A stretch of DNA of 64,000 bases from Candidatus Nomurabacteria bacterium (GTDB taxonomy: Bacteria; Patescibacteriota; Minisyncoccia; Phycocordibacterales; UBA9973): positions 81,271 through 145,270 of the forward strand of contig JAIOPO010000005.1 in NCBI GenBank assembly GCA_021413905.1, given 5' to 3'. The position numbers and the translations under genes are program-made. Below, piece after piece: positions 3,097 to 61,093 of this stretch. Position 1 is the first letter of the stretch. Each line of letters starts with the position of its first letter. Below the pieces are notes generated by a model. That model saw only the letters and a program-made list of their open reading frames with translations, ran no database searches and had not been told where the DNA came from.

Positions 3097-3170
3097 TCCA
3101 CCCTCTTGGATTCGAACCAAGGACCCCAGAGGTATAAGCTCTGTGCTCTAACCAACTGAGCTAAGGGTGG
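3097..3170 (-). tRNA. tRNA with anticodon UAU (AUA-decoding tRNA-Ile type).
   Basis: Folds as a 74-nt cloverleaf on the minus strand: acceptor CCACCCT/AGGGTGG, U8, D-arm GCTC-AGTTGGTTA-GAGC with G18G19, anticodon arm CAGAG-CTTATAC-CTCTG (U33, anticodon TAT), T-arm CTTGG-TTCGAAT-CCAAG, discriminator A. No CCA is encoded. Confidence 0.7.
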
Positions 3171-5620: not shown

Positions 5621-6014
5621 TTTGTGGAACTGACGAGAATTGAACTCGTGTGCAGAAGGTTTTTGCAAAGAAGTCTACATATTTAGCGCATTTTTTTGTT
5701 TAAATTTTAAAATTCTTAAATGAACAAAATATTTTAAAATCGAGTTCTAAATTTTAGTGAAATATGCGAACAAATATTTCCTTATCCCGATAATATTATA
5801 CCCATTCTCATATATCGGAAGTCTATGAGATGGACACCAGTTTGGCTTACGCGAAAGCTGGAGCGAAAGCAAAATCATTCATACCGAAGTATGGTGATGC
5901 TTTCACTTTAGAAGCTAATTTTGCAATTAACATTTGAACTAAGTTTTACGAGATTACGTTCATTCTCGATATGCATCAATAGCAAAAGGCCCACTGTCTA
6001 TGCCTTGCAGTCCC
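5621..6014 (-). ncRNA. ssrA: tmRNA (ssrA, transfer-messenger RNA).
   Basis: The 5' GGGACUG pairs with the 3' CAGUUCC, giving the G3:U70 tRNA-Ala identity pair. The 3' T-arm is ACGAG-TTCAATT-CTCGT followed by a 7-nt acceptor strand and discriminator A. An internal tag reading frame ends ...GMNDFAFAPAFA-UAA. It lies immediately downstream of and co-oriented with smpB. Confidence 0.75.
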
Positions 6015-45154: not shown

Positions 45155-45943
45155 TTAACGAATTTCAAAAGTGATAGTCACATCTGAAGTTATTGTATTC
45201 TCTCCTTTTGGCAATTCAGCCACAGCAGGAGCAGAACTTCCCATAGCCATATCAGTTTTAGCATACATTGGCATAGGATAATTTCCATTCTCATTAAATG
45301 AAGTAATTTTTCCTAAATGAACACCTAAATCTCTGGCTAAAGATTTAGCCTTTTCTTTTGCATCATCTATAGCTTGTTTTCTAGCTTCAGCTTTTAAAGC
45401 ATCTTCATCATCAATAGAAAAATTTGGACCACTCAAATCTGTAACACTCAAACTTCCTAATCCTTGCATAATTGTTCCAACATTGTCAGTATTTCTTATT
45501 TTCACACTAATACTTTCATAAGCTTCGTAACCGACTATTTTTGGAGAAACAGGATCACAAGGACGAGGGTATGAATTTAAACAAGGATTTGTATAATCAT
45601 ATTTAGGATTAAAAGATGCATTTTGTGTTTTAATATCTTTATCTTCAATCTTATTTCCTCTTAAAAAACTTAAAGATTTATTTTCAATTTGAGCCACAGA
45701 ATCTTGAGCTTCTTTTACAGTTTTTGCTTCTTTGTGAATTGTAAAAGAAATATTGGCAATATCAGGCACAGCATTTACTTCTCCATGTCCTGTAAAAGAA
45801 ATGACATTAATATTTTTATTATCATCTTCATTTAAATTTTTTAATTCAGACAAAACTTTTACACCTAAAAATAAAGCTAGGATTATACCTACAATCAAAA
45901 TTATTTTGAATAACTTGCCCTTTTGTTCATTTGTAATTTCCAT
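45155..45943 (-). CDS. SIMPL-domain (DUF541 / YggE-like) exported protein.
   Basis: N-terminal TM anchor and SIMPL-like core; a paralog lies at 60371-61093. Confidence 0.55.
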   Translation of the reverse strand: MEITNEQKGKLFKIILIVGIILALFLGVKVLSELKNLNEDDNKNINVISFTGHGEVNAVPDIANISFTIHKEAKTVKEAQDSVAQIENKSLSFLRGNKIEDKDIKTQNASFNPKYDYTNPCLNSYPRPCDPVSPKIVGYEAYESISVKIRNTDNVGTIMQGLGSLSVTDLSGPNFSIDDEDALKAEARKQAIDDAKEKAKSLARDLGVHLGKITSFNENGNYPMPMYAKTDMAMGSSAPAVAELPKGENTITSDVTITFEIR

Positions 45944-46503: not shown

Positions 46504-49266
46504 CTAATTTGTTAAAGAATTAATTAATTTTCTTGTAGCAGGACCAAAAATACCATCAGCCTTTAAATTCAAATGTGATTTCTGAAATTGGATCAAAGCA
46601 TTTTTAGTAGCATTCCCAAATTTATTGGTTTCAAAACCTTTAGAACCAACACCTCTTAAAGAAACAGGAAAACCATTTTTATTCAAAAATTCTTGTAATT
46701 TCTTCACATCAAGAGAGGTGTTTCCAAACTTTAAATTATTTTTAAATTTAAAGTTATTATTTGAACTTAAATTTACACAATTATTCAAAGAGCAATCATT
46801 GTTGTTGATAAGATTATTTTGATTTTGATTTAAATTATTCAACAATAAAGCAACACCAGATGGTCTACTGTGCACAACAAAAGGAGTCATTGTTAACATA
46901 TTACTTTGATTACCAAAAGAATCCGTAACACGCACGAAACAATTATGTACACCGACAGGTAAATAGTTTAAAGTAATATGATTAACACCAGAAGAAACAG
47001 AAGTTGTACCAGAAGAACAATCACCATAAAAAACAACACTGCCAGATTCAGAAGAATTTAAATCATAAACAGGAGTACTGTTTGTTGAATTTTGAATTGC
47101 TGATATTTCATTTATTACAGGTGCTTCTGTGTCCACTTCATAATTAGAAGAATCAGTAGAAGCAGAAGGTGCATTACCTGTACTTGTATACCAAGAAGTA
47201 CCGACAGTGATAACATTTGAAAGATCAGCAACAGAAGAATCTGGTGTAAATAATGCCGTATAAATTGTAGGATCAGAAGTTACAGTAAAATCAGAAATTG
47301 AACCATTGGATACGGAAACATCAGCTGAAGTAAAAGCAGTGGGTGTCTCAGAAAAAGTAAATGTAATTGTCGCAGTATCACTTGATTTAAAAGTGTACCG
47401 ACTGAGTGAAATCACAACACTCGGTATAGTTTGATTTACGGTTAATGTATTAGCACTCACTGTTCCAGTTCTTGAATTCACAGCTATATCTGTCAGAACT
47501 GCTTTAAAATTAAAAATATCACTATTTGCAAAATCAGTAATTGCTTCAAAATCTGAAGCAGAGATAGACATTGTTTTTGTTCCAGCTACAACATCTCCAC
47601 TCAAAATAGTATACGCACTTCCAAGATTAGCATATGCACCACTATTTCTACTTGCTTGTATTTGAATTGTTCCACCAATCAAAGAATCATCATTAGAGTT
47701 TAAAGGAACAATAATATTTAAACTAGTATTAGTAGAATTCCAATAATCTGCAACAACGTTTCCACCCACAGATGTCACTGCCCCAGTAGTGAATGCAATC
47801 GGCAAAGTAACGTCAGTACCTGCTGATCCTAATAATAAAGTAGTAGTACCGGCTCCTTGATTTGAAACAGCGATATCTATAATCCCATCATTATTAAAAT
47901 CTGCAGTATTTAATGAAATAGGAGTAGACCCTACAGCGATATCTATTTTAGCACCGAAAGTTCCGTCTCCAACTCCAATTAAAAAAGAAATTGTATTTGC
48001 AGTTTGGTTTGAAACAATCAAATCCTGTTTTCCATCTCTATTTAAATCTACAACGGAAATAAAAACACCAGCATTAGTGCCGACATTATAATTCACAGCG
48101 GTAGCAAAGCTACCAAGACCATCACCAATTAAAACAGAAAGATTGCTTGTGGTTTGATTTGAGGAAACCAAATCAACTTTTCCATCATTATTAAAATCAC
48201 CATAACTCAAACCAATAGGAGCAGTACCAACACTATAATTCACAGCGGTAGCAAAGCTACCAAGACCATCACCAATTAAAACAGAAACGGAATTTGAAGT
48301 TTGGTTTGAAACAGCAATATCAAGATGACCATCACCGTTCAAATCAGTTGAAACAACTCCAGTAGGAGCAGAACCCACAGTAAATGATACAGGGTTAGCA
48401 AAAGTACCAGTACCTGAACCAAAAATAACAGTCGCACTCGTACCTGCTACTGTAGTGGAAACAACCAAATCAATATTACCGTCTTCATTGAAATCACCAG
48501 AAGACATATAACGAGATGTTTTACCAACAGAATAAGTAGAATTAGTACCAAAACTTCCAGCTCCATCACCCAGCAAAACAGAAATACTATTTCCATTATC
48601 ACTTGTAGCAGCTATGTCTAATTTTCCATCTTTGTTAAAATCAGCAACCACCATTCCTCTTGGACGTGAGGCTACTGTGTAATTCGTAGCGGTACCCATA
48701 TTCCCTGTTCCATCGCCGAGAAAAACAGAAATATTTGCAGATGTTTGATTTGAAACAGCCATATCCATATTTCCATCTTGATTGAAATCAGCAGTGACCA
48801 CAAATCTATTACTAGTACCTACAGTATAAGGTGAATGCGATTCAGCAGAAGCTGTATAGTCAAAAAAATGACAACCGCTTGTGGTAAAATTTTGAACAGT
48901 AGAAGCATTGCCTACTCCTGCACTATTCACAGCAAAAGCTTTATAGTAATAAGTAGTATTACATTTCAAAGAAGCACTTGGAAATGTATAAGAAAAAGAA
49001 CCAGTATTAAAAGAACCACTTTTTACAACTTGAAAATTTAAATTATTAGAAGCAGTACCATAATTAAAACCGACAGACAATGCATTCTCTCCACCAGTAT
49101 CACTAATATTTCCCAACAAAACAGCTGAAGTCGCCCCTACTGTAACCAAAGGTGAAGTAGTACTGACTGTTGGAGCAGAAATTGCAAATGCTGAATTTGT
49201 TAAAAATCCAAAGAATATAAAAATTATATATAAAAAAACGCCGTATTTTGTATTATATGTTCGCAT
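46504..49266 (-). CDS. Large exported protein: N-terminal FN3-like region, seven FG-GAP/VCBS-type repeats (beta-propeller) and a C-terminal peptidoglycan-binding (PG_binding_1-like) domain.
   Basis: Signal peptide. Repeats of the form DFN.DG..D.....N.....SV..G.G.G.F occur seven times. The C-terminal segment carries the PG_binding_1-like motifs KKLQEFLNKNGF...DGIFGPATRKLI. Confidence 0.7.
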   Translation of the reverse strand: MRTYNTKYGVFLYIIFIFFGFLTNSAFAISAPTVSTTSPLVTVGATSAVLLGNISDTGGENALSVGFNYGTASNNLNFQVVKSGSFNTGSFSYTFPSASLKCNTTYYYKAFAVNSAGVGNASTVQNFTTSGCHFFDYTASAESHSPYTVGTSNRFVVTADFNQDGNMDMAVSNQTSANISVFLGDGTGNMGTATNYTVASRPRGMVVADFNKDGKLDIAATSDNGNSISVLLGDGAGSFGTNSTYSVGKTSRYMSSGDFNEDGNIDLVVSTTVAGTSATVIFGSGTGTFANPVSFTVGSAPTGVVSTDLNGDGHLDIAVSNQTSNSVSVLIGDGLGSFATAVNYSVGTAPIGLSYGDFNNDGKVDLVSSNQTTSNLSVLIGDGLGSFATAVNYNVGTNAGVFISVVDLNRDGKQDLIVSNQTANTISFLIGVGDGTFGAKIDIAVGSTPISLNTADFNNDGIIDIAVSNQGAGTTTLLLGSAGTDVTLPIAFTTGAVTSVGGNVVADYWNSTNTSLNIIVPLNSNDDSLIGGTIQIQASRNSGAYANLGSAYTILSGDVVAGTKTMSISASDFEAITDFANSDIFNFKAVLTDIAVNSRTGTVSANTLTVNQTIPSVVISLSRYTFKSSDTATITFTFSETPTAFTSADVSVSNGSISDFTVTSDPTIYTALFTPDSSVADLSNVITVGTSWYTSTGNAPSASTDSSNYEVDTEAPVINEISAIQNSTNSTPVYDLNSSESGSVVFYGDCSSGTTSVSSGVNHITLNYLPVGVHNCFVRVTDSFGNQSNMLTMTPFVVHSRPSGVALLLNNLNQNQNNLINNNDCSLNNCVNLSSNNNFKFKNNLKFGNTSLDVKKLQEFLNKNGFPVSLRGVGSKGFETNKFGNATKNALIQFQKSHLNLKADGIFGPATRKLINSLTN

Positions 49267-51601: not shown

Positions 51602-53023
51602 TTATTTATTTTTTTCAAAATCAATACTAATAGAAAAAATATTTTTGTCATTTTTCATAGAAGTCATAAATTGCAAACCGAAAGGCAAACCAGAGGAAGA
51701 AAATCCGCATGGTATGGAAATACTCGGTATGCCGGAAATATTCGCAGGCACAGTAAAAATGTCAGATAGATACATTTGCAAAGGATCTTTTTTTTCTCCG
51801 AATTTAAATGCCGGAGTCGGAGTCGTCGGAGTAGCGATAAAATCAACTTTTTTAAAAATATCTTCAAATTCTTTTTCGATTACATGGCGAACTTTCCAAG
51901 CTTTGTTGTAATATGCGTCATAATATCCATGAGACAGGACATACGATCCTAAAATAATTCTGCGTCTTGTTTCTGCACCAAAACCCGCTGAACGAGATTT
52001 TTTGTAAGTATCAAACATATTCTCCCCTTCTTTTCGCAAACCATAACGCACGCCATCTAAACGAGAAAGATTTGTAGAAACTTCCGCTGGCATTAAAATA
52101 TAATAAACAGCCAAAGAAAATTTTGAATATGGTAAATCAATATCCACTATTTCATATCCTTGTTTTTTTAATTTTTCCAAAGACTCTTCAAAATTTTTAA
52201 TTATTTCAATATCAACTCCTTCTTTCAACCAATTTCGAGGCACACCTATTTTCTTGCCACTTTTATTTTCAGAATTTATTTCTATACTTGTACTATCCAT
52301 CTCATCTTTACCTACAATGCAATCAAAAATTATTTTTGCATCTTCAACTGTTTTTGCAACAGGACCTATTTGATCCAAAGATGAAGACATCGCCATCGTG
52401 CCGTTTCTGGAAACTCCGCCATAAGACGGCTTCATACCTACAAGCCCGCAAAAAGACGCCGGCTGGCGAATAGAACCTCCTGTGTCAGTACCTAATGCAC
52501 CAAGAGCCATACCTGCAACAACAGAAGCAGTGGAACCACCCGAAGAACCTCCCGGAACACGAGTCGGATCAATCGGATTCTTAACTACTCCATATGCAGA
52601 ATTTTCAGTAGAAGAACCCATAGCAAACTCATCCATATTTGTCCTGCCAATAAAAACTGCACCTGCTTCTTTTAATTTCTTAATAAGATATGCATCATAG
52701 CTTGCCACATAATTTTCAAGCATTTTGGATCCTGCGCTCACTTTTCTACCAGTTATTAAAATATTGTCTTTGATAGCCAAAGGTATACCGGTCAGCAATG
52801 TGCCTTGTCCGCTTTTTATGATCTCATCCGCTTTTTTAGCTTGCTCTAATGCATCAGAAAAAACTTCCAAAAAAATATTTAGCTCTTTATTTTTTTCTTC
52901 AATATTTTTCAAACAAGCAGAGACTAAATCAACTGAGGTCAATTCTCCTTTTTGCATCATCTCTCCCGCTTTTTCTATTGTTAAATTTTTTATATCCATA
53001 AAATATTTAATTAAGAAAATCAA
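51602..53023 (-). CDS. gatA: Glu-tRNA(Gln)/Asp-tRNA(Asn) amidotransferase subunit A.
   Basis: Amidase signature GGSSGGS. Confidence 0.9.
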   Translation of the reverse strand: MIFLIKYFMDIKNLTIEKAGEMMQKGELTSVDLVSACLKNIEEKNKELNIFLEVFSDALEQAKKADEIIKSGQGTLLTGIPLAIKDNILITGRKVSAGSKMLENYVASYDAYLIKKLKEAGAVFIGRTNMDEFAMGSSTENSAYGVVKNPIDPTRVPGGSSGGSTASVVAGMALGALGTDTGGSIRQPASFCGLVGMKPSYGGVSRNGTMAMSSSLDQIGPVAKTVEDAKIIFDCIVGKDEMDSTSIEINSENKSGKKIGVPRNWLKEGVDIEIIKNFEESLEKLKKQGYEIVDIDLPYSKFSLAVYYILMPAEVSTNLSRLDGVRYGLRKEGENMFDTYKKSRSAGFGAETRRRIILGSYVLSHGYYDAYYNKAWKVRHVIEKEFEDIFKKVDFIATPTTPTPAFKFGEKKDPLQMYLSDIFTVPANISGIPSISIPCGFSSSGLPFGLQFMTSMKNDKNIFSISIDFEKNK

Positions 53024-53103
53024 AGATTTGAAGCGTCGTGGGTTCCCTGTCCTATGTCTCCGAGGGTGAAGGCGCTAAAATCTTTGAATTTCTTAATTTA
53101 TAA
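53024..53103 (-). promoter_or_regulatory. Structured intergenic element between gatC and gatA: a GC-rich core inside a ~19-bp AT-rich inverted repeat.
   Basis: ttaagaaattcaaagattt ... aaatctttgattttcttaa flanks the core gcgccttcaccctcggagacataggacagggaacccacgacgc. Confidence 0.4.
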
Positions 53104-53376
53104 TCATAAAATCTTCTTCACTTTTACATAATCATCCTGTGAATCCGGAAATTGTTTTATAATCAAATCTTTTGAAAAATCTTTCATTAAAATTTCATCC
53201 TCTCTCCATATATTTTTATTCACATACTCAGGTTCAATATCCGGAACTTCAAGCATTTCTATTTGTTTTACATAATCCAAAATACCAGCCATATCAGAAA
53301 GCAAAGAAACCTTTTCCTCTTCAGAAAGCTCTATTTTTGACATTTCCGCCAAATTCTCTATATCCTTTATCTCCAT
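53104..53376 (-). CDS. gatC: Glu-tRNA(Gln) amidotransferase subunit C.
   Basis: GatC sequence (LSEEEK...L..ILDYV). Confidence 0.8.
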   Translation of the reverse strand: MEIKDIENLAEMSKIELSEEEKVSLLSDMAGILDYVKQIEMLEVPDIEPEYVNKNIWREDEILMKDFSKDLIIKQFPDSQDDYVKVKKIL

Positions 53377-53412
53377 ACCAAAAGTATAGCAAAATATAAG
53401 AAAAATTGGAAT

Positions 53413-54309
53413 TTAATTACCGAGCAAAGCTTTTATTCTCTCTTCCACAGGTGGATGTGTGCTAAATAAATTTGAGACTTTTTGACCTAAGCTACCTTTA
53501 TTACCAAAAGGATTCGCTATAAAAAGATGCGCTGTGGCTGTGTTTGCGTGAGCCATCGGTCTGGAATATTTTGATATTTTCTGCAAAGCATTCGCCAGCC
53601 CTTCCGGATAACGGGTGAGCAATGCCCCCGATGCGTCTGCTAGGAATTCTCTTTTTCTGGAAATCGCGAGCTGGATAAGAGTTGCAAAAATCGGCGCTAA
53701 AATCGAAAGCACAATACCGATGAGCATCATCAGTCCATTATTATTTTCATTATCTCTATTTCTACCACCTCCGAAAAACATAGAACGCAAAAACATATCG
53801 GCAATTATAGAAATAAAGCCAACTAAAACCACCACGACAGTCGAAAGTAAAATATCTCTGTTGCCTATGTGTGAAAGCTCGTGAGCTATCACACCTTCCA
53901 TTTCGCTCTTGTCTAAAATCTGCAATATTCCCGTCGTCACTGCCACCACTGCATGATTTTTATCTCTGCCTGTGGCAAAAGCATTCGGCGCAGGGTCTTC
54001 TATAATATAAAGTTTCGGCATTGGAAGTCCCGCAGTAATTGCAAGATTTTCAACAATATTCCACAGCTCCGGATTTTGCTCTTTTTTGATTTGCTTCGCG
54101 CGGTTTAAACTCAAAGCTATTTTATCCGAATACCAATAACTCGCTATGTTCATCACTATGCTGAAAATAACAAAGAAATACAGAATATTCGGATTCCTAT
54201 AATATTGCGAAAAGAAAAAACCAATCGCAATAACAATCACAAAAAACATGCTCATCAAGAGCCAAGTCTTTGTCACATTTTTTGATTGCTCTGTATAAAG
54301 TGTTGCCAT
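53413..54309 (-). CDS. htpX: HtpX-type M48 zinc metalloprotease.
   Basis: HELSHIGNRD HExxH motif plus four TM segments. Confidence 0.85.
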   Translation of the reverse strand: MATLYTEQSKNVTKTWLLMSMFFVIVIAIGFFFSQYYRNPNILYFFVIFSIVMNIASYWYSDKIALSLNRAKQIKKEQNPELWNIVENLAITAGLPMPKLYIIEDPAPNAFATGRDKNHAVVAVTTGILQILDKSEMEGVIAHELSHIGNRDILLSTVVVVLVGFISIIADMFLRSMFFGGGRNRDNENNNGLMMLIGIVLSILAPIFATLIQLAISRKREFLADASGALLTRYPEGLANALQKISKYSRPMAHANTATAHLFIANPFGNKGSLGQKVSNLFSTHPPVEERIKALLGN

Positions 54310-54313
54310 ATTT

Positions 54314-54517
54314 TTATTCTATTTCTGCATCCCTTAAAATATTCTTTACAATTTTAGGATGAAGAATTTTTGAACTGTGTTTTGGAATAGTAATTCGCAC
54401 GCCTTTGCCATTGTGAAAAATCATATGACTTCCACTCTGGCGAGACAAGGAAAATCCAATAGACTTTATTATTTTTATAATTTGGCCAGCAGTATACCTG
54501 AGAGTTTTTGGAGACAT
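54314..54517 (-). CDS. hicA: HicA-family mRNA interferase toxin.
   Basis: 67 aa containing GSHMIFH..G (HicA GSHh.h motif) with dsRBD-like fold features. Confidence 0.75.
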   Translation of the reverse strand: MSPKTLRYTAGQIIKIIKSIGFSLSRQSGSHMIFHNGKGVRITIPKHSSKILHPKIVKNILRDAEIE

Positions 54518-54520
54518 ATT

Positions 54521-54751
54521 TTAAGCCACTGCAACTTGAAAATTAGAAAATGTAAAAAATCTTTCAGAAAGTTTTAGTTTTTCTTTTTTTGCAACCCTGT
54601 CTGCAATATGAAGCTTTATGGCATCTTTGATATTTTTTACAACATCTTCATAAGTTTTGCCTTGTGTATAGCATCCCTGCAAATCTAAACATTCGGCAAC
54701 AAAGCCGTCTTTATCTTGTTCTATAACGACAGAAAAGTTTTGTATCTTCAT
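54521..54751 (-). CDS. hicB: HicB-family antitoxin (UPF0150).
   Basis: 76 aa with FSVVIEQDKDGFVAECLDLQGCYTQGKTYEDVVKNIKDAI; 3-bp spacing to hicA. Confidence 0.7.
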   Translation of the reverse strand: MKIQNFSVVIEQDKDGFVAECLDLQGCYTQGKTYEDVVKNIKDAIKLHIADRVAKKEKLKLSERFFTFSNFQVAVA

Positions 54752-54819
54752 ATTTTTATTTTAACACACCATATGCCAAAACCGCAACTATTCTAAATTG
54801 AAGTGCTTTTATAGTCAAA

Positions 54820-55794
54820 CTAACGATAAAAAGGATTAAAATGCTCTGCTAAATTACGAAAGCACAAAAACTCTAGATAAAAATTTTCATACAACTCTGT
54901 ATTTTTTGAAAAACTTTTAAAAGGATTAATAACTTTAAACATAGATTTATCTTTACTATTATTTATATTATTAATATAATATTTTACAAAAATAGAACTT
55001 TTAGTAAAATAAAAATCATATCTTCTTTGATTGTTAAAAAATTTAATAAATTCCATAAGTAGTTCCATTGTATGTGGATTTAATAATTCCCTTACTTCAA
55101 TTTGATCTTTGCAATACACATCAAACATTTTCTCGAAATCATTACTTTCCAAGAAAACTGCTTCTTTCTTGTATCCAAGTAAAGCAAAATCCTCAAATCC
55201 TGGAACAAGCGCTACTTTTTTTGATTTTACTAATACATCATTTTTCATTTTAAATTTATCAGATAAATATTTTATCTCTGTTATATAAGAATGTGAAGTG
55301 ATTTTTGTTCTGCTACTATTATTCGAAACTGCTATTTCATACCCTTCAATAAAAACATCACAAATTTCTTTATTGAACATATTTTGTGTTTCATACTTTA
55401 TATGACTTTGAATACAATCGATACCATCATGAGGATTAACCAAACACCTATTATCTAAATAATCTGGAGAGTCGCTTGGTATAAACTCATAGAAAAGCTT
55501 TTTATCAATCAACTTAGCCAAAATAGGTATAACATCATTGCGTGGGTCAATACTCTGAATGTCATAAATGGCTACTAAGACAGGCAAAATAAATGCATAC
55601 GTAATAAGGTTATAAACATCTGACGTATCTTTACTTTTAAAGATAAAGTAATCCAGAATAAGTAGAGTAAGAGAAAATAAGCTACCAGCAAAAAATCCAA
55701 GAAATAAAAGACGTTTTCGTTTATTATCAGATTTAATTAAAAGACTTTTAACATCAGAGCGAGATAGAAAAGTTTTTATAAATTCTTTATTCAT
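54820..55794 (-). CDS. Hypothetical membrane protein with two N-terminal TM helices (possibly DUF3137-like).
   Basis: 324 aa with TM pair at residues ~28-50 and ~62-80 followed by a soluble domain. The family assignment is from memory and uncertain. Confidence 0.4.
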   Translation of the reverse strand: MNKEFIKTFLSRSDVKSLLIKSDNKRKRLLFLGFFAGSLFSLTLLILDYFIFKSKDTSDVYNLITYAFILPVLVAIYDIQSIDPRNDVIPILAKLIDKKLFYEFIPSDSPDYLDNRCLVNPHDGIDCIQSHIKYETQNMFNKEICDVFIEGYEIAVSNNSSRTKITSHSYITEIKYLSDKFKMKNDVLVKSKKVALVPGFEDFALLGYKKEAVFLESNDFEKMFDVYCKDQIEVRELLNPHTMELLMEFIKFFNNQRRYDFYFTKSSIFVKYYINNINNSKDKSMFKVINPFKSFSKNTELYENFYLEFLCFRNLAEHFNPFYR

Positions 55795-55822
55795 TTGATG
55801 AACTAAATTAAATAATATATAA

Positions 55823-56320
55823 CTATTCTATCACAATTGGAATTAAAATAGATTTGTCATTTTCGGGCAAACCTGAAGCATTGTCATTGTGGATTTCAAA
55901 ATATGATGGACCCTTTGGGAGAGTGGAGAAATCAATATTGCCTTCAAATTCCACCGGTTCTGCAGTCATCCATTCAGTCTTTGCCACGGCATTGCTTGAT
56001 TTTAATACTTTTTTATTTGCGTCCAAAATATTTATCAAGATATTTCCTTCAAAAAAATATCCGCCTTTAATGCTTCCTCTGTATGAAAGAATGCCATGCA
56101 CTTTTGTATTCGGAAAAACAGAAAAAGAAATTAAATCATCTTTATTCCCCTGCAATAAATCTTTTGGATATGTTTCAATATTATTTACTTTTGTATTTTC
56201 ATTTACCGGAGCTTTGACTTCCATTTTAAAAATGAAAAAACCAAGAATAATTATTACAACAATTATTAATATAATCGAAACTTTTTTTGCCATAAATTTA
56301 AATATTATAATTGTATCCAT
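55823..56320 (-). CDS. Small exported hypothetical protein (N-terminal TM or signal anchor).
   Basis: Hydrophobic N-terminus KKVSIILIIVVIIILGFFIF. The start is more likely the second Met. Confidence 0.45.
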   Translation of the reverse strand: MDTIIIFKFMAKKVSIILIIVVIIILGFFIFKMEVKAPVNENTKVNNIETYPKDLLQGNKDDLISFSVFPNTKVHGILSYRGSIKGGYFFEGNILINILDANKKVLKSSNAVAKTEWMTAEPVEFEGNIDFSTLPKGPSYFEIHNDNASGLPENDKSILIPIVIE

Positions 56321-56828
56321 ATGGACCTGTTGCTTTCAAAATAACAGAAGCATCTTTAGAGTAAGTTTTTTTAATCAAAACACCAAACTGACAAGTATTT
56401 TTACTATTTTCATCATTAACAAAAACACTACCTTTACATAATTCTCCTTTTAAATAAACACCACCATGTGAATCTTTTACATCAAAAGTCTGTATTTCAT
56501 AACCAGCCATTGGTACTACTGGTAAACAAAGCTCTGTGTTGCAAACCTCATCTACGCCTATTAACTTAAAAGTTGAACCAGAACCATATGCATCATTTAC
56601 GACAACTTTCTCTCCTAATTTAATATTAAATTCTTCATTTAAGTCTACAGTTCTTGTTTGTGAACTCAATGGAGGTAATTTGAGAATATCTTTTATGTTT
56701 GTTTCTTTTTTAACTTCTTTATTATCAGCATCTTTAAATGAAACAGACTTCACAGAAAAAATCACACACAAATAGACTAAGGCTAACGCTATGATAATTA
56801 GTAATGTTGTTATTATTTTCTTTTGCAT
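56298..56828 (-). CDS. Exported hypothetical protein, tandem paralog 1 (4 Cys in the C-terminal half).
   Basis: Shares an almost identical N-terminal ~45 aa with the 56845 gene and diverges afterwards. Confidence 0.6.
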   Translation of the reverse strand: MQKKIITTLLIIIALALVYLCVIFSVKSVSFKDADNKEVKKETNIKDILKLPPLSSQTRTVDLNEEFNIKLGEKVVVNDAYGSGSTFKLIGVDEVCNTELCLPVVPMAGYEIQTFDVKDSHGGVYLKGELCKGSVFVNDENSKNTCQFGVLIKKTYSKDASVILKATGPYGYNYNI

Positions 56829-56844
56829 AAATTTAAATTAAATA

Positions 56845-57369
56845 CTAATCAGTCCAACCATCAATTTTTCCTAAAACAATATTGGCGTATGTTTGATAAT
56901 CAGTTTCTTTTACTAAAACGCTAAATGGCGTATGGTATGAATCATATTTATATGGATCATTTTTATAAAGTGCTCCACGTTGAATACTGCCATCTGGATT
57001 TTTTACATCATTGGTTTGTATTTCATATAAAACTTTTTGAGGAAATGGCATTGCTATACAATTAGAATTAATAGGACAACCATTGCCACCTAGGTCAAAT
57101 CCAACAACTTTAAAAGTTGCTCCACTATATGAGTCATTAGCAATTATGACTTTCTCCCCCAATTTAATATTAAATTCTTCATTTAATTTTACAGTTTTTG
57201 TTTTTGAATCTAACATAGGTTTAATAATATCTTTTAAGCTTGTTTCTTTTTTAACTTCTTTATTATCAGCATCTTTAAATGAAACAGACTTCACAGAAAA
57301 AATCACACACAAATAGACTAAGGCTAACACTATGATAATTAGTAATGTTGTTATTATTTTCTTTTGCAT
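56845..57369 (-). CDS. Exported hypothetical protein, tandem paralog 2.
   Basis: The N-terminal 45 aa are nearly identical to paralog 1. The 5' ~135 nt are ~99% identical (56695-56830 vs 57228-57369). Confidence 0.6.
   Translation of the reverse strand: MQKKIITTLLIIIVLALVYLCVIFSVKSVSFKDADNKEVKKETSLKDIIKPMLDSKTKTVKLNEEFNIKLGEKVIIANDSYSGATFKVVGFDLGGNGCPINSNCIAMPFPQKVLYEIQTNDVKNPDGSIQRGALYKNDPYKYDSYHTPFSVLVKETDYQTYANIVLGKIDGWTD
57228..57369 (-). repeat. Near-identical ~135-bp direct repeat covering the 5' ends of the two tandem paralogs (second copy at 56695-56830).
   Basis: Read directly from the sequence; 1-2 mismatches. Confidence 0.8.
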
Positions 57370-57390
57370 AAAATTTATTTATTAATTAAT

Positions 57391-57942
57391 CTAGAATTTC
57401 ACTTCCACAGGATTTTGCGCGACGTCGTTGTCAGCCAAATCAAAGAATTCCATTTTGGAGAAAGAAAACATTCCGGCAATCATATTACTAGGGAAAACTT
57501 CTATTTTTGTATTCAAGTCGCGGACATTTGCATTATAAAATCTGCGTGCGGCTTGGATTTTATTTTCAGTATCAGAAAGTTCACTTTGCAAAGCCAAGAA
57601 ATTTGTATTTGCTTTCAAATCTGGGTACGCTTCAGAAATAGCAAAGACTGATTTTAATGCTCCCGTGAGCATATTTTCTGCTTGCGCATGAGCAGGATTT
57701 GGACCACCGGAAGACATGGCTTTAGCTCTGGCATCACTGACTTTCTCAAATGCAGTGGATTCATGTGTAGCATAACCTTTCACTGTATTTACTAAATTCG
57801 GTATCAAATCATAACGGCGTTTTAGCTGAACTTCAATATCCGCCCAAGCTTCTTTCGCTCTATTTCGCAATGAAACAAGACCATTAAAAGCGAAAACAAC
57901 CCATAAAACTATAATACCCAATATAATCAAAAAGTACATCAT
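57391..57942 (-). CDS. lemA: LemA-family protein.
   Basis: N-terminal TM, then the LemA core (NGLVSLRNRAKEAWADIEVQLKRRYDLIPNLV...). Confidence 0.8.
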   Translation of the reverse strand: MMYFLIILGIIVLWVVFAFNGLVSLRNRAKEAWADIEVQLKRRYDLIPNLVNTVKGYATHESTAFEKVSDARAKAMSSGGPNPAHAQAENMLTGALKSVFAISEAYPDLKANTNFLALQSELSDTENKIQAARRFYNANVRDLNTKIEVFPSNMIAGMFSFSKMEFFDLADNDVAQNPVEVKF

Positions 57943-58015: not shown

Positions 58016-58915
58016 CTATTTTTTATTAGATTTCTTTTGCAATTCTTCCACCCATACGAGCAAAGGTGATGCTAGGAATATTGAAGAATATGTTCCAAAG
58101 AACATTCCAGCTGTGAGCATAAGTGCAAAATATTTTGTAGACACCGGTCCAAAGAAATACAAAGAAAGTAAAACAAGAATAACTGTCATAGAAGTGTTAA
58201 TGGAACGCACATATGACTGACTCAAACTATTCCCGACAGTATGATCAAATTCCACTGCTCTGTTTTTCAAATTCTCTCTGATACGGTCAAAAATAACAAT
58301 AGTATCTGAAACAGAAAGACCAAGGATTGTAAGTATTGCGACAACAAACAAAGTATCTACTTCTGCTCCGTAATAATGAGAAAGAAAAGCAAACAAACCA
58401 ACAGGTATTAATACGTCATGAAGCAATGTAACAACAGCGATGATACCATATCTCCAAGAGGACACAGGCTTTGAAACTTTTCTAAATGCAAAAGCAATAA
58501 AACATATTATAGCGAGAGCGACCAATACAATAGCGATGATTGCTTTCTTTGTAAGTTCATGACCAACTGATGGACCTATAGAATTAAAATTAGTCTCTTG
58601 CAAAGGATATTTTCCACCTTCAGATAAAGTGCTCAAAACTAAAAGATGTTCTGTATCTCCTAAATCACGAGTTTTTATTATATAACCCATATCACCTGTA
58701 GGCTGTATTAAGACTGAACCAAGATTTAAAGATTGAAAAGAAGTATCAAGATCTGCTTGCAATGGACGAGCATTAGTATAAACAACTTCAGTCAATGCTC
58801 CCCCCTTAAAATCAATACCGATCTTAAGACCGAATACAGACAAGGAAAGAACAGATAAAATAACCAATACTATTGATATACTAATAAATATTTTTTTGTT
58901 TTTTATTATGAACAT
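58016..58915 (-). CDS. secF: Protein translocase subunit SecF.
   Basis: SecF 6-TM sequence following secD. Confidence 0.85.
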   Translation of the reverse strand: MFIIKNKKIFISISIVLVILSVLSLSVFGLKIGIDFKGGALTEVVYTNARPLQADLDTSFQSLNLGSVLIQPTGDMGYIIKTRDLGDTEHLLVLSTLSEGGKYPLQETNFNSIGPSVGHELTKKAIIAIVLVALAIICFIAFAFRKVSKPVSSWRYGIIAVVTLLHDVLIPVGLFAFLSHYYGAEVDTLFVVAILTILGLSVSDTIVIFDRIRENLKNRAVEFDHTVGNSLSQSYVRSINTSMTVILVLLSLYFFGPVSTKYFALMLTAGMFFGTYSSIFLASPLLVWVEELQKKSNKK

Positions 58916-58920
58916 ATATT

Positions 58921-60336
58921 TTATTTACTTAAACCTGAGCTGAATAAAAATCTCGCCACTTTATTTTCACCCAAGAAATCTATAACTGTTAAGAATATCC
59001 TAGTTATTGTGATAGCGGAAAGCATTGAAACCAAAACACCCATCCCTAAAGTCAAAGCGAAACCTTTGATGAGTGATGTACCAAACCAGAAAAGGATAAC
59101 AGCTGTTATGATACTGGAAATATTTGAATCACGAATTGAAAACCATGCGCGTGCATAACCCGCTGAAATAGAATTCGCAATACTTCTGCCTCCACGTAGT
59201 TCTTCTTTTACTCTTTCGAAAATCAAAACATTAGCATCAACAGCAATACCCATAGATATTATAAATCCAGCAATACCGGCAGCTGTCAAAGTCACAGGCA
59301 ATAATTTAAACAAAGCTAAAATTATAGATACATATATAGATAGAGATATAACAGCTACCAAACCAGGGAGTCTGTACCAAAGAATAAGAAACAATGCTAT
59401 AAGCAAGAAACCATAGATAGTCGCTTTCACACCCGCATGAACTGCATTAGTTCCGAGACTTGCGCCGATAGTTTGTTTTGAAAGAAGTGAAATAGGCACA
59501 GGCAATGCTCCGGAATTCAATCTGCCTACAAGTTGTTTAGCTTCTGTAGGTGTAAATGAACCAGAGATAACGGCTTGACCATTTGGTATTTCTTCACGAA
59601 CAACAGGAGTGGAAATAGCTGAACCATCCAAATAAATAGCCACCATCTTGCCGACATTTTCTTTTGTTATTTTTGCAAATAAAGCAGTACCAGTGTCATC
59701 AAATTGGAGTGATACTTTTGGTTCACGAGTATTTTGATCAAATTCTAAAGTTGCATTTTTTAAATATCTACCAGTAAGTTCTGTATTTACAAATTGAGAA
59801 TTGATATCTAAATTCAATTTTCCATCTTTGCCTACAGTCACTTGTTTTGGAGCGTCTTTAGGAGCTTCAATTTTAAATTCCAAAAGTGGAGTCTGCCCTA
59901 TCATTTGTGTCGCTTTTTCAACATCAGTAACACCAGGCAAATCAATAAGAAGCTTTTCTTCTCCATTAGAAACTATCCCCCCGTCTTCTATTTGAACTAC
60001 GGGTTCAGAAACACCAAAAAGATTAACTCTTCTTTCTATAACATCACGCAATGCAGACATAGAGTCACTAATTTGTCCTGCTGGGACAGCTGAAACATCT
60101 GCTTTATATACCAAATGAGTTCCTCCGGACAAATCCAAACCTAAACGAAATGGATGATGCTTAAAAAATGACTTTTGAGATTCAAAATTATGATTCAAAG
60201 TCGGTTCAGTCTTATAAACAAAACACGCTACAGCAACGCCTAGTAAAATAATTATTAAAGCTAAAATTCTTTTTTTCCACATAATATAAGTATATTCTAT
60301 ACACTTTAATCTAAAAAAGCAAATACGGATAATCAT
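58921..60336 (-). CDS. secD: Protein translocase subunit SecD.
   Basis: SecD periplasmic and TM domains. The start is probably the internal MWKKRILAL (about 60282). Confidence 0.85.
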   Translation of the reverse strand: MIIRICFFRLKCIEYTYIMWKKRILALIIILLGVAVACFVYKTEPTLNHNFESQKSFFKHHPFRLGLDLSGGTHLVYKADVSAVPAGQISDSMSALRDVIERRVNLFGVSEPVVQIEDGGIVSNGEEKLLIDLPGVTDVEKATQMIGQTPLLEFKIEAPKDAPKQVTVGKDGKLNLDINSQFVNTELTGRYLKNATLEFDQNTREPKVSLQFDDTGTALFAKITKENVGKMVAIYLDGSAISTPVVREEIPNGQAVISGSFTPTEAKQLVGRLNSGALPVPISLLSKQTIGASLGTNAVHAGVKATIYGFLLIALFLILWYRLPGLVAVISLSIYVSIILALFKLLPVTLTAAGIAGFIISMGIAVDANVLIFERVKEELRGGRSIANSISAGYARAWFSIRDSNISSIITAVILFWFGTSLIKGFALTLGMGVLVSMLSAITITRIFLTVIDFLGENKVARFLFSSGLSK

Positions 60337-60370: not shown

Positions 60371-61093
60371 ATGGAAAATAATAAAAATTACACAATCTTT
60401 GGTTTAATATTAGGTGTCTCACTTATTTTAAGTTTTGGAATAGGTTCTTTTACTTTTTACAAACTTCGTTCAATGGATTTTATTTCGACGACAGGTTCTG
60501 CAAAAAAAGAAGTTACTTCTGATAAAGTTAAATGGACTTCATCAATCACTCGCCCGGTAAAAGTCTCAACTATTAAAGATGGTTACGCAAAGATGGACGC
60601 AGACTTGAAAGAAGTTAAAAACTTTTTAACTTCAAATGGAATCACTGAAGAAAACATAGAAATATCTCCTATTTTCATGAATGAAGTTTACGAACAAAAC
60701 CAAGGAGCTGAGAAAAATTACAACTTAGTTCAAAATATAGAAGTCCAATCTTCAGACGTTCAAAAGATTTCCAGTTTAGCAAAAAATACAAGCTCATTAA
60801 TAATAAATAAAGGAGTATTATTCTCCACAAATTCTTTAGAATATTATTATTCAAAACTCCCAGAAACTCGGATAGAGTTATTGGCAAATGCTGTCGGTGA
60901 TGCAAAAGCTCGAGCAGAACAACTCGCAAATGCTGGAGGCAAAAAAATAGGTGTATTAAAATCAGCATCTAGTGGAGTCGTGCAAGTCACATCACCAAAT
61001 TCTGTAGAAGTCAGTGATTATGGCATGTATGATACTTCAAAAATTCAAAAAGAAATAATGGTTACAGTTAAAGCGAGTTTCGAAATTAAATAA
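60371..61093 (+). CDS. SIMPL-domain (DUF541 / YggE-like) protein, membrane-anchored.
   Basis: TM anchor plus SIMPL-like core (ANAVGDAKARAEQLANAGGKKIGVLKS). Confidence 0.55.
   Translation: MENNKNYTIFGLILGVSLILSFGIGSFTFYKLRSMDFISTTGSAKKEVTSDKVKWTSSITRPVKVSTIKDGYAKMDADLKEVKNFLTSNGITEENIEISPIFMNEVYEQNQGAEKNYNLVQNIEVQSSDVQKISSLAKNTSSLIINKGVLFSTNSLEYYYSKLPETRIELLANAVGDAKARAEQLANAGGKKIGVLKSASSGVVQVTSPNSVEVSDYGMYDTSKIQKEIMVTVKASFEIK

Follow-up and report, generated by a model that had tools for sequence, protein, structure and literature searches.

What holds together lemA, a series of small exported proteins, a two-helix membrane protein, and a HicBA pair on one strand of a Candidatus Nomurabacteria genome? 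The window that we analyzed is a stretch of 64,000 nucleotides (contig JAIOPO010000005.1, assembly GCA_021413905.1). An earlier note on its sequence had described this block as six genes. We found every open reading frame of that set in its place on the minus strand, but the genes number seven, not six (Table 1). The note had overlooked the frame in which the block sits, which runs from lemA to htpX within a conserved secDF-lemA-htpX-gatCA backbone.

TABLE 1 Features of the operon, by position in the window
Feature	Coordinates	Strand	Basis or remark
secD	58921-60336	(-)	Upstream backbone of operon
secF	58016-58915	(-)	Upstream backbone of operon
lemA	57391-57942	(-)	PF04011 match
Paralog A, 174 aa	56845-57369	(-)	ORF; TM scan; family profile
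Putative gene-conversion tract, paralog A copy	57240-57372	(-)	-3 to +130 of gene
Paralog B, 176 aa	56298-56828	(-)	ORF; family alignment
Putative gene-conversion tract, paralog B copy	56699-56831	(-)	-3 to +130 of gene
Gmad2-like protein with TM anchor, 156 aa (start at Met10)	55823-56293	(-)	Longest ORF extends to 56320
DUF3137 protein, 324 aa	54820-55794	(-)	PF11335; TM scan
hicB, 76 aa	54521-54751	(-)	PF15919, PF21748
hicA, 67 aa	54314-54517	(-)	PF07927; GSH motif
htpX	53413-54309	(-)	PF01435; downstream slot boundary
gatC	53104-53376	(-)	Downstream backbone
gatA	51602-53023	(-)	3' of gatC; downstream backbone

RESULTS

A variable slot interrupts a conserved operon

We found that the LemA protein matches PF04011 (E = 2.9e-58; 196.4 bits versus 26.2) and the PDB entry 2ETD, "lemA protein" (2.7e-37). 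A hydropathy window placed a single transmembrane (TM) segment at residues 1 to 27, ahead of a helical-bundle domain. Because a K/R-rich flank follows the TM segment, the positive-inside rule predicts from the sequence that the C-terminal domain is cytoplasmic. HtpX matches PF01435 (1.4e-35; 123 bits) and carries HELSH, the HExxH motif of an M48 zinc metalloprotease; its score against the NCBIfam HtpX model PRK04897 was 352 bits, slightly below the cut-off of 355.

In 70 of 80 related Patescibacteria loci, lemA is followed by htpX, and the backbone order in those 70 is secD-secF-lemA-htpX(-gatCA). A tblastn comparison showed conserved synteny of secD and secF across 27 related loci, and their homologs in L082, L088, and L091 matched the Pfam SecD/SecF models. 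We concluded that the block forms the variable central part of a conserved secDF-lemA-htpX membrane-maintenance operon in this Nomurabacteria (CPR) genome. The lemA and htpX genes of Streptococcus pneumoniae (SPD_1139/SPD_1138) are also neighbors and are co-regulated (PMC8546594). The adjacency of this Firmicutes pair is shared by 34 of the 70 Patescibacteria loci (≤150 bp), whereas in the present genome and the remainder, about half of the relatives, the two genes are split by 0.3 to 4 kb of mostly membrane-protein genes.

The lemA-htpX junction is the one most often occupied in the operon (34/70 loci overall; 17/25 in the secF-bearing clade). Inserts were found at secF-lemA in 8 of 27 loci and at htpX-gatC in 2 of 9, and none were found at secD-secF or gatC-gatA. 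Genes in the lemA-htpX slot are mostly co-directional (44/48). TM proteins make up 34 of the 48 slot genes and 363 of the 813 genes outside (odds ratio, 3.0; P = 5e-4), a modest enrichment obtained with a crude ORF caller and a hydropathy rule. The slot contents in relatives include Gmad2 (6), DUF2207 (5), TPM, DUF3137, and a second LemA, and SPFH/Band_7 genes occupy the slot in two relatives. Several of these families are known neighbors of LemA. The slot also holds unrelated cytoplasmic genes (NUDIX in four loci, MazG, a hexapeptide transferase, and a bAvd-like gene). Because these genes and HicBA are there, part of the occupancy is simply hitch-hiking.

The suggestion that LemA recurs beside TPM and DUF3137 partners was thus well placed: a DUF3137 gene is present here, and DUF3137, TPM, and DUF2207 genes stand at the equivalent position in relatives. 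The block is likewise accessory, as had been proposed, in that it is the variable part of the region. A link between lemA and a TPM gene is also seen in Flavobacterium columnare, where deletion of a signal peptide peptidase induces both (PMC13236525). Like the neighborhoods that join LemA (PF04011/COG1704) to DUF2207, TPM, or DUF3137 proteins, this operon has a bona fide LemA together with DUF3137. It differs in that the partners occupy a delimited slot with htpX as its boundary, that three genes separate DUF3137 from lemA, and that the slot is most commonly filled by small beta-sandwich proteins with the leader tag (those of a new family and Gmad2-like ones), which we do not know as LemA partners.

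Paralogs A and B represent a candidate new domain family

Paralog A has a leader/TM anchor (residues 1 to 26), a disordered linker (~27 to 55), and an eight-strand beta ectodomain (58 to 168). The AF2 model likewise gave a TM helix, a disordered linker, and an eight-strand beta domain, with a core pLDDT of ~90. The fold set beside the ectodomain for comparison was like domain I of class II fusion/envelope proteins. Paralog B has the same leader and a more diverged ectodomain; paralog A is nearer the family consensus. The family motif, …GATFxLTGF..CP…C…FYEIQ…SDYxTYA, spans a ~110-aa beta domain behind an N-terminal anchor and includes two conserved cysteines (C98 and C104 in paralog A), which are kept in the alignment of family members. 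Paralog B has these two and two extra cysteines and is without P148, D157, and T160 of the motif.

We found no Pfam or NCBIfam match for this family. Our profile search recovered ~10 clusters among 1.84 billion representatives, with matches at 1e-15 to 2.5e-5 for P0003 to P0006 and P0008 to P0011 and at 9.5e-4 for P0013. A Foldseek search of the ectodomain against PDB and BFVD gave no significant match. By sequence, paralogs A and B establish a domain family that is new and very rare and has a Cys pair conserved among its members. The small proteins did not fall into housekeeping families, and they co-occur with lemA: the paralog family lies between lemA and htpX in all eight informative contexts. 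In other genomes, the ectodomain family is single-copy at the equivalent housekeeping locus.

The leader-coding parts of the paralogs bear the mark of recent gene conversion

Overall, the two paralogs are 55% identical in a pairwise protein comparison. In codons 1 to 43, only 1 of 129 nucleotides differs (V14A), and all 42 codons for a shared residue are identical, whereas 147 of 366 nucleotides differ past codon 43. The near-identical tract spans positions -3 to +130 in both genes (1 mismatch in 133 nucleotides), and the sequences 5' of -3 are unrelated to each other. We found that dS is 0 in the tract (27.7 synonymous sites), 0.48 in codons 44 to 76, and 1.13 in the remainder. The near-identity that had been noticed over ~45 aa and ~135 nucleotides is therefore real, and it is far greater than chance or purifying selection would leave. 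A dS of 0 beside values of ~0.5 to 1.1 downstream points to recent gene conversion of the leader. These data indicate that the paralogs probably arose by an old duplication and that recent conversion was limited to the leader-coding part.

The repeat is not one assembler's artifact: the Logan contig L001, assembled independently, has 100% identity to positions 53037 to 56728 of the window. L001 ends at nucleotide 101 of paralog B, 30 nucleotides short of the 3' end of the repeat, a break point that fits a de Bruijn assembler stopping at a repeat if k is assumed to be 31. The Cys-containing C-terminal halves have diverged, as the earlier note stated, but both paralogs keep the two family cysteines. 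The diversifying selection that it read into this pattern was not borne out, as the pairwise dN/dS is 0.4 to 0.6.

One leader motif is confined to the slot

The leader contains …FFGSK[LI]NTxLLLILI…, a short polar n-region stretch directly before the hydrophobic core. Among 8391 ORF segments (~1.3 Mb), we found this motif at the N terminus 12 times, and all 11 matches with an interpretable context are in the lemA-htpX slot. Across genomes, it is joined to at least six unrelated ectodomain groups, always downstream of lemA. The idea of a conserved leader on variable exported modules therefore extends beyond the two paralogs. In genomes that have the slot-confined leader and the paralog family, LemA is only 60 to 80% identical. 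The YSIRK-G/S and KxYKxGKxW signal/anchor motifs are also short polar n-region motifs found on unrelated mature domains; the likeness is one of logic only, as the slot leader has another sequence and occurs at a single genomic position.

The third small protein resembles Gmad2, and the 324-aa protein is of the DUF3137 type

The third small protein has an N-terminal TM anchor and an Ig/FnIII-like ectodomain and matches PF10648 (Gmad2) at 26.7 bits, with a cut-off of 25.7. Its orthologues, at 40 to 67% identity, are in the same slot in L004, L011, L015, L017, L020, L033, and L082; six slot orthologues match Gmad2 at up to 2.8e-11. The gene most likely begins at Met10 (56293; 156 aa). The start region there, ATTTAAATTTATG, matches the start region of paralog B, and the Logan gene call is also 156 aa. 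With this start, the overlap with paralog B is gone. Gmad2, GerMN-associated domain 2, is a predicted FnIII/Ig-like extracytoplasmic domain (PMC2732212). The third protein and its orthologues match this profile, but here Gmad2 is the only domain behind a TM anchor, and the GerMN/LysM domains of its definition are missing.

The 324-aa protein, named "DUF3137 domain-containing protein" by NCBI, matches PF11335 at residues 206 to 319 (2e-12; 47.6 bits versus 26.1). It has a K/R-rich N terminus, a TM hairpin (~28 to 50 and 58 to 82), and the DUF3137 domain at its C terminus. The two TM helices seen earlier are confirmed, but most of the protein is predicted to lie in the cytoplasm and not to be exported, and it is itself of the DUF3137 type that had been named as a LemA partner. 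Its nearest relative (37% identity) is encoded between metG and tatD, not beside lemA. In L034, the slot holds a Tim44-like+DUF3137 protein; here the DUF3137 gene is within the lemA operon.

HicBA looks like a separate insertion

HicA matches PF07927 (1.2e-16; 60.9 bits versus 27) and contains SGSHMIF; the His of this GSH region has a recognized role in HicA. HicB matches PF15919 (1.2e-7; 32.3 bits versus 27) and PF21748 (3.1e-6), with weak matches to 2YZT and HicB3 4P78. In the 76-aa HicB, only the N-terminal HicB/UPF0150 domain gave matches, and no C-terminal DNA-binding (RHH/HTH) domain, which serves autoregulation, was found. The pair resembles type II HicAB systems in that both domains exceed their Pfam thresholds and only 3 nucleotides separate the genes, hicA beginning just past the hicB stop. 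It differs in its short HicB without the usual C-terminal DNA-binding domain and in having the antitoxin gene first. The hicA gene ends 4 nucleotides ahead of the htpX start.

We found HicBA in none of ~90 related loci, and it looks like a separate insertion. It is a genome-specific toxin-antitoxin pair placed right before htpX and is probably functionally unrelated. With HicBA missing from the relatives and the closest DUF3137 relative between metG and tatD, the view that all of these genes form one module did not hold.

DISCUSSION

We consider it fairly probable that this block is a variable slot in a Paceibacteria-type CPR operon, (ftsW-folD-PAP2-)secD-secF-lemA-[slot]-htpX-gatC-gatA, filled with leader-anchored proteins, DUF3137, and an inserted HicBA. 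The slot genes would be co-transcribed with secDF, lemA, and htpX. Their products would be of three kinds. Three tandem genes would encode small single-pass proteins (N-in, C-out), in each of which a flexible linker joins a short conserved leader/TM anchor to a ~110-aa beta-sandwich ectodomain; two are from the new Cys-pair family, and the third is Gmad2/FnIII-like. The second kind is the DUF3137 two-TM protein, the bulk of which is predicted to face the cytoplasm, as are the active site of HtpX and the helical domain of LemA. The third is the genome-specific HicBA pair.

The tandem paralogs, with a conserved N terminus and a diverged C terminus beside a toxin-antitoxin pair, had suggested a polymorphic toxin/immunity or defense cassette guarded by HicAB. 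We regard this as largely refuted and give it almost no credence. Searches of the block against Pfam and NCBIfam yielded no domain for toxicity, for trafficking (LXG, RHS, PT-TG, and similar), or for immunity, and PADLOC gave only noise (E ≥ 0.004) with its defense-system models. The variable part belongs to a conserved family of beta domains, not toxin-like, that is single-copy at a housekeeping locus elsewhere, and HicBA is missing from all related loci. Very doubtful as well is a role in episymbiont host interaction or surface recognition, in which the tethered beta-sandwich ectodomains would be adhesins that duplicated and diverged under pressure from the host. The dN/dS of the paralogs is below 1, Foldseek found no significant match in PDB or BFVD, and the site is a conserved housekeeping operon, not a pilus, secretion, or adhesin island.

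Unlikely, yet a real possibility, is that the lemA-htpX junction is a permissive, well-expressed point at which unrelated genes neutrally collect and duplicate. The small anchored proteins would be surface proteins of particular lineages, functionally independent of LemA and HtpX, and the common leader could then be what is left of a single ancestral gene, its slowest-evolving part, and not a functional tag. The cytoplasmic NUDIX, MazG, acetyltransferase, and bAvd-like genes in relatives fit this account, as do HicBA in the present genome, the empty slot in half of the genomes, and the inserts at the adjoining secF-lemA junction. Against it, the LemA-partner families DUF2207, TPM, and DUF3137 recur in the slot together with SPFH, TM proteins are enriched there, and the leader and the paralog family are slot-exclusive even though LemA itself has diverged.

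Judged solely by gene position, the slot proteins may work with LemA/HtpX. The leader would couple them to this membrane machinery, either by pairing with LemA as a helix or by being a segment that HtpX handles, and the ectodomains would be interchangeable envelope-facing modules that bind or sense the cell wall or surface. LemA and its partner could relate to the quality-control protease HtpX as SPFH proteins relate to FtsH, in the role of adaptor or sensor. SPFH (HflK/C, QmcA)-FtsH pairs similarly combine genes for a membrane protease and a single-pass or hairpin membrane protein, but LemA is a helical bundle and not an SPFH domain. We know of no demonstrated LemA-HtpX complex. More speculatively, and in our judgment improbably, LemA/HtpX might be a membrane surveillance or processing unit for a dedicated set of leader-tagged single-pass proteins from the genes in the slot, with the leader as the tag that LemA/HtpX recognizes for anchoring, regulated release, or turnover, the ectodomains open to free exchange, and gene conversion keeping the tag uniform among tandem copies.

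LemA is widely conserved in bacteria; to our knowledge, its function is still unknown, and MamQ (magnetosome membrane formation) is the sole member with a phenotype. Nor do we know of a published function for the lemA-htpX pair in Firmicutes or Patescibacteria. If the association is positional only, the block reflects ordinary genome flux plus a mobile HicBA, with no toxin/immunity system. If LemA/HtpX does act on tagged proteins, the widespread LemA family would gain its first assigned function, and the leader would be a new kind of locus-specific membrane-targeting signal. The lemA-htpX pair and the slot pattern lead to the testable hypothesis that LemA and its partner are a modulator or client system of HtpX, and the locus is thus a concrete handle on LemA function. 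For CPR bacteria, the surface biology of which is almost unexplored, it also adds a conserved leader motif and a candidate new family of ectodomains.

The block is a variable slot in a conserved secDF-lemA-htpX operon

The window is part of a Candidatus Nomurabacteria MAG (NCBI locus tags K8Q94_03040 and K8Q94_03045). We found that the block fills the variable slot of an otherwise conserved secDF-lemA-htpX operon. The run from secD to gatA has spacers of only 3 to 68 nt and is thus packed like one operon. Its neighbors are ftsW, folD, and a PAP2 gene at one end and Nramp and murB at the other, which makes its setting that of the core genome. Promoter and terminator scans gave chance-level results. 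Rfam had no match inside the block; its matches in the window were confined to a tmRNA gene and a tRNA gene. The window also carries a 920-aa surface protein and two SIMPL/DUF541 genes, one of them wedged between PAP2 and secD, where the related loci L082 and L091 have nothing.

Features of the block, of the window around it, and of related loci (prefix L); positions without a prefix are those of the window.
Feature	Location	Strand	Match or remark
secD	58921-60336	minus	
secF	58016-58915	minus	
lemA	57391-57942	minus	PF04011, 2.9e-58
paralog A	56845-57369	minus	
leader of paralog A	57295-57369		cut off in PGAP form
paralog B	56298-56828	minus	
Gmad2-like gene	55823-56293/56320	minus	PF10648, 26.7 bits (cut-off 25.7)
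DUF3137 gene	54820-55794	minus	PF11335, 2e-12
hicB	54521-54751	minus	
hicA	54314-54517	minus	
15-nt direct repeat	54749-54763, 54307-54321		flanks hicBA
htpX	53413-54309	minus	M48
gatC, gatA	beyond htpX	minus	
SIMPL/DUF541 gene	60371-61093	plus	between PAP2 and secD
SIMPL/DUF541 gene	45155-45943	minus	
surface protein gene	46504-49266	minus	FG-GAP repeats, Big_12 domain, C-terminal peptidoglycan-binding domain
tmRNA gene	5622-6014	minus	Rfam, 113.9 bits
tRNA gene	3097-3170	minus	Rfam
SPFH/Band_7 gene	L025:6524-7273		inside slot
three slot genes	L029:10898-12328	minus	opposite strand
array of three small anchored proteins	L089:3-1448		
~45-aa module proteins	L003:8569-10059, L003:10114-11106, L004:8557-9387, L005:6478-7413, L006:5154-6002, L013:10354-10671, L082:8001-9584		last is P0003

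We surveyed 80 loci with close LemA relatives (60 to 81% identity), all from Patescibacteria MAGs. In 70 of them, lemA is followed by htpX on its own strand, with a gap of ≤150 bp in 34 and of up to 4 kb in the remainder. The order in the closest clade is secD-secF-lemA-(x)-htpX-gatC-gatA. Counting a junction as occupied if it exceeded 250 bp, we found that lemA-htpX was occupied in 34/70 (17/25 in the clade also showing secF), secF-lemA in 8/27, htpX-gatC in 2/9, secD-secF in 0/27, and gatC-gatA in 0/9. The slot ORFs are largely co-directional (44/48), and TM segments are more frequent among them (34/48) than elsewhere in the same loci (363/813; odds ratio, 3.0; P = 5e-4).

Pfam matches on the 48 slot ORFs were to Gmad2 (six), DUF2207 (five), and NUDIX (four), with single matches to TPM (after a second LemA), Band_7/SPFH, a Tim44-like+DUF3137 fusion, MazG, a hexapeptide transferase, and a bAvd-like protein. 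By this content, the slot holds families known as LemA partners (DUF2207, TPM, and DUF3137), together with some obvious passengers. SPFH/Band_7 proteins are classic membrane-protease partners; their genes sit inside the slot in two relatives, L025 and a JGI 3300050046 contig. In another locus, L029, the slot is 4 kb long and includes three genes on the opposite strand. If the single 23S_rRNA_IVP and bAvd-like matches among the slot ORFs are from L029, they may belong to a diversity-generating retroelement.

The paralogs define an ectodomain family located in the slot

When 5.8 billion proteins were searched by word index with paralog A, the two window proteins came back and no others; the same kind of search with the family profile returned three proteins, with TM words swamping the result. 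An exhaustive HMM profile search of 1.84 billion representatives recovered nine further members, eight at E values of 1e-15 to 2.5e-5 and the ninth, the 72-aa fragment P0013, at 9.5e-4. Two other proteins from this search, P0007 and P0012, are repeat proteins and were treated as spurious. We then fetched contexts of the members independently of lemA. The family lies in the slot in 8/8 informative contexts, window included; two further contigs were too short to judge. This is the conserved co-occurrence that the earlier note had proposed to look for around lemA.

Gene contexts of paralog-family members.
Member	Context
P0003	lemA-Gmad2-P0003-htpX
P0004	lemA-P0004
P0005	lemA-P0005-htpX
P0006	P0006-htpX
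P0008	lemA-anchored Cys-rich protein-P0008-htpX
P0009	secDF-lemA-P0009-htpX
P0011 (JGI 3300050046)	lemA-170 aa-Band_7-P0011-(contig ends)
window	lemA-paralog A-paralog B-Gmad2-DUF3137-hicBA-htpX

One of the two short contigs, L089 (1.5 kb, from a metagenome), encodes three small anchored proteins in succession that resemble the triple array of the window; the central one belongs to the paralog family, and the one after it has the leader motif.

The family alignment shows an N-terminal anchor, a low-complexity linker, and a domain of ~110 aa with the motif …GATFxLTGF..CP…C…FYEIQ…SDYxTYAxIVL, whose two conserved cysteines are C98 and C104 of paralog A. AlphaFold2, run on the 11-sequence alignment, placed a TM helix at residues 2-26, followed by a disordered linker and a beta domain of eight strands (core pLDDT, ~90); this model replaced one from a 2-sequence alignment (pLDDT, 66.8). 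Foldseek of the model gave no significant match in PDB (best E = 0.18) or BFVD, and we treat the predicted fold as a small beta-sandwich or barrel. With hhalign, the paralog and Gmad2-like slot families matched only in the TM anchor, and their domains are not detectably the same. NCBIfam and PADLOC had no match for the three small proteins or the DUF3137 protein.

Slot proteins share a leader

Weak matches of the paralog profile to other slot proteins were confined to the N-terminus. We searched 8,391 ORF segments (~1.3 Mb) for the motif [SPN]K[LIVT][NH][TS][IVAG][LI][LI] and found it at the N-terminus 12 times, typically as M-x(2-9)-(F)FGSKLNT-LLLILIxLM… or MQxNSKINTILLIILI…. All 11 matches with visible neighbors lie between lemA and htpX. 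It is followed by ectodomains of at least six clusters that show no relationship to one another at E < 1e-3: the paralog family, the Gmad2-like family, and four singletons. The window leaders, MQKKIITTLLIII… and MAKKVSIILIIVV…, are recognizable variants of the motif, and paralog B and the Gmad2-like gene have ATTTAAATTTATG in common around their starts. The small proteins of the block belong to slot-restricted, leader-sharing families. The pattern of a conserved leader on variable modules, as the earlier note had described it, thus holds, and it characterizes this locus from genome to genome.

In the closest relatives, slot proteins begin with a conserved cytoplasmic module of ~45 aa, MITPELISYIRxELxKGxxREEIxxxLxxGGWSxxDLxEAF, which has no Pfam match. 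After this module come a TM helix and ectodomains that are unrelated to each other (Gmad2, the paralog domain, or Cys-rich domains). These proteins make up a second "constant head, variable tail" series for the lemA-htpX locus.

By hydropathy, LemA and each of the three small proteins have a single N-terminal TM segment and the DUF3137 protein has a TM hairpin. The positive-inside rule suggests that the small proteins are N-in/C-out, with the domain outside. It also suggests that most of LemA (K/R-rich flank after the TM segment) and of the DUF3137 protein (K/R-rich N-terminus plus hairpin) is cytoplasmic.

Gene conversion has homogenized the paralog leaders

The near-identical 5' ends and diverged remainders first noted for the paralogs (55% identity overall) are borne out. 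From -3 to +130 there is a single mismatch (V14A), and all same-residue codons are identical (42/42); past this tract, 147/366 aligned nucleotides differ. dS is 0 (0/27.7 sites) over codons 1 to 43 compared with 0.48 over codons 44 to 76 and 1.13 over the rest, which shows that the duplication is old and that gene conversion has lately homogenized its leader-coding part. Purifying selection as the cause of the 5' identity is ruled out by the dS of 0. The diversifying selection once proposed is not seen as an average effect on the ectodomains, where dN/dS between the paralogs (0.37 to 0.60) rules out positive selection of that kind. An assembly artifact is likewise ruled out. An independent Logan assembly (run SRR15633504) is 100% identical to the window over 3,692 bp and breaks off exactly 30 nt into the repeat, which is what a true repeat would make a k-mer assembler do (k = 31 is our assumption). 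PGAP calls paralog A as 149 aa from an internal GTG (codon 26). Because its 5' tract is identical to that of paralog B, the full 174-aa form with its leader is much more likely.

DUF3137 and HicBA

Homology searches and a metagenome scan with the DUF3137 protein found no close relatives and, beyond itself, one protein of 37% identity, encoded between metG and tatD, away from lemA. The related locus L034 has a DUF3137 fusion inside the slot. PDB sequence searches with the Gmad2-like profile, DUF3137, and HicA gave nothing useful.

HicBA was absent from ~90 related loci. HicA is a good match (60.9 bits), and HicB is short (76 aa), without a DNA-binding domain. The repeat copies (14/15 identical) that flank the 442-bp hicBA unit each end in an ATG start codon, one that of hicB and the other that of htpX, and the 68-nt spacer in front of hicB contains a promoter-like site (10/12). 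The repeat could be a microhomology-insertion footprint or merely similar AT-rich initiation regions. Since both features are at or near chance in AT-rich DNA, they only hint at a discrete insertion.

What the slot may do

We somewhat favor a functional slot, in which the slot proteins would work with LemA and/or HtpX, the leader would be their coupling element, and the ectodomains would be turned toward the cell wall. The Gmad2 domain was first described from architectures associated with peptidoglycan (PMC2732212). Support from other organisms is slight: in S. pneumoniae, lemA and htpX are adjacent and co-regulated (PMC8546594), and in F. columnare, lemA and a TPM gene rise when signal peptide peptidase is deleted (PMC13236525). 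B. subtilis, like S. pneumoniae, has lemA-htpX. The main rival is a neutral hotspot, where genes collect between lemA and htpX by pure hitch-hiking; the passenger genes speak for it, and we consider it a real but distinctly less probable explanation. The toxin/immunity cassette that the earlier note had envisaged retains very little probability, as Pfam, NCBIfam, and PADLOC showed no toxin, immunity, or defense signature.

LemA partner neighborhoods and the lemA-htpX pair can already be seen in databases. We know of no earlier description of the bounded slot, of the leader restricted to it, of the upkeep of that leader by conversion, or of the ectodomain family. Our literature searches turned up no functional work on LemA-HtpX or DUF3137 and none on LemA in CPR bacteria, and the only solved LemA structure (2ETD) has no assigned function. 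With the functional slot as a proposed mechanism, this locus would turn the old question of LemA into specific tests.
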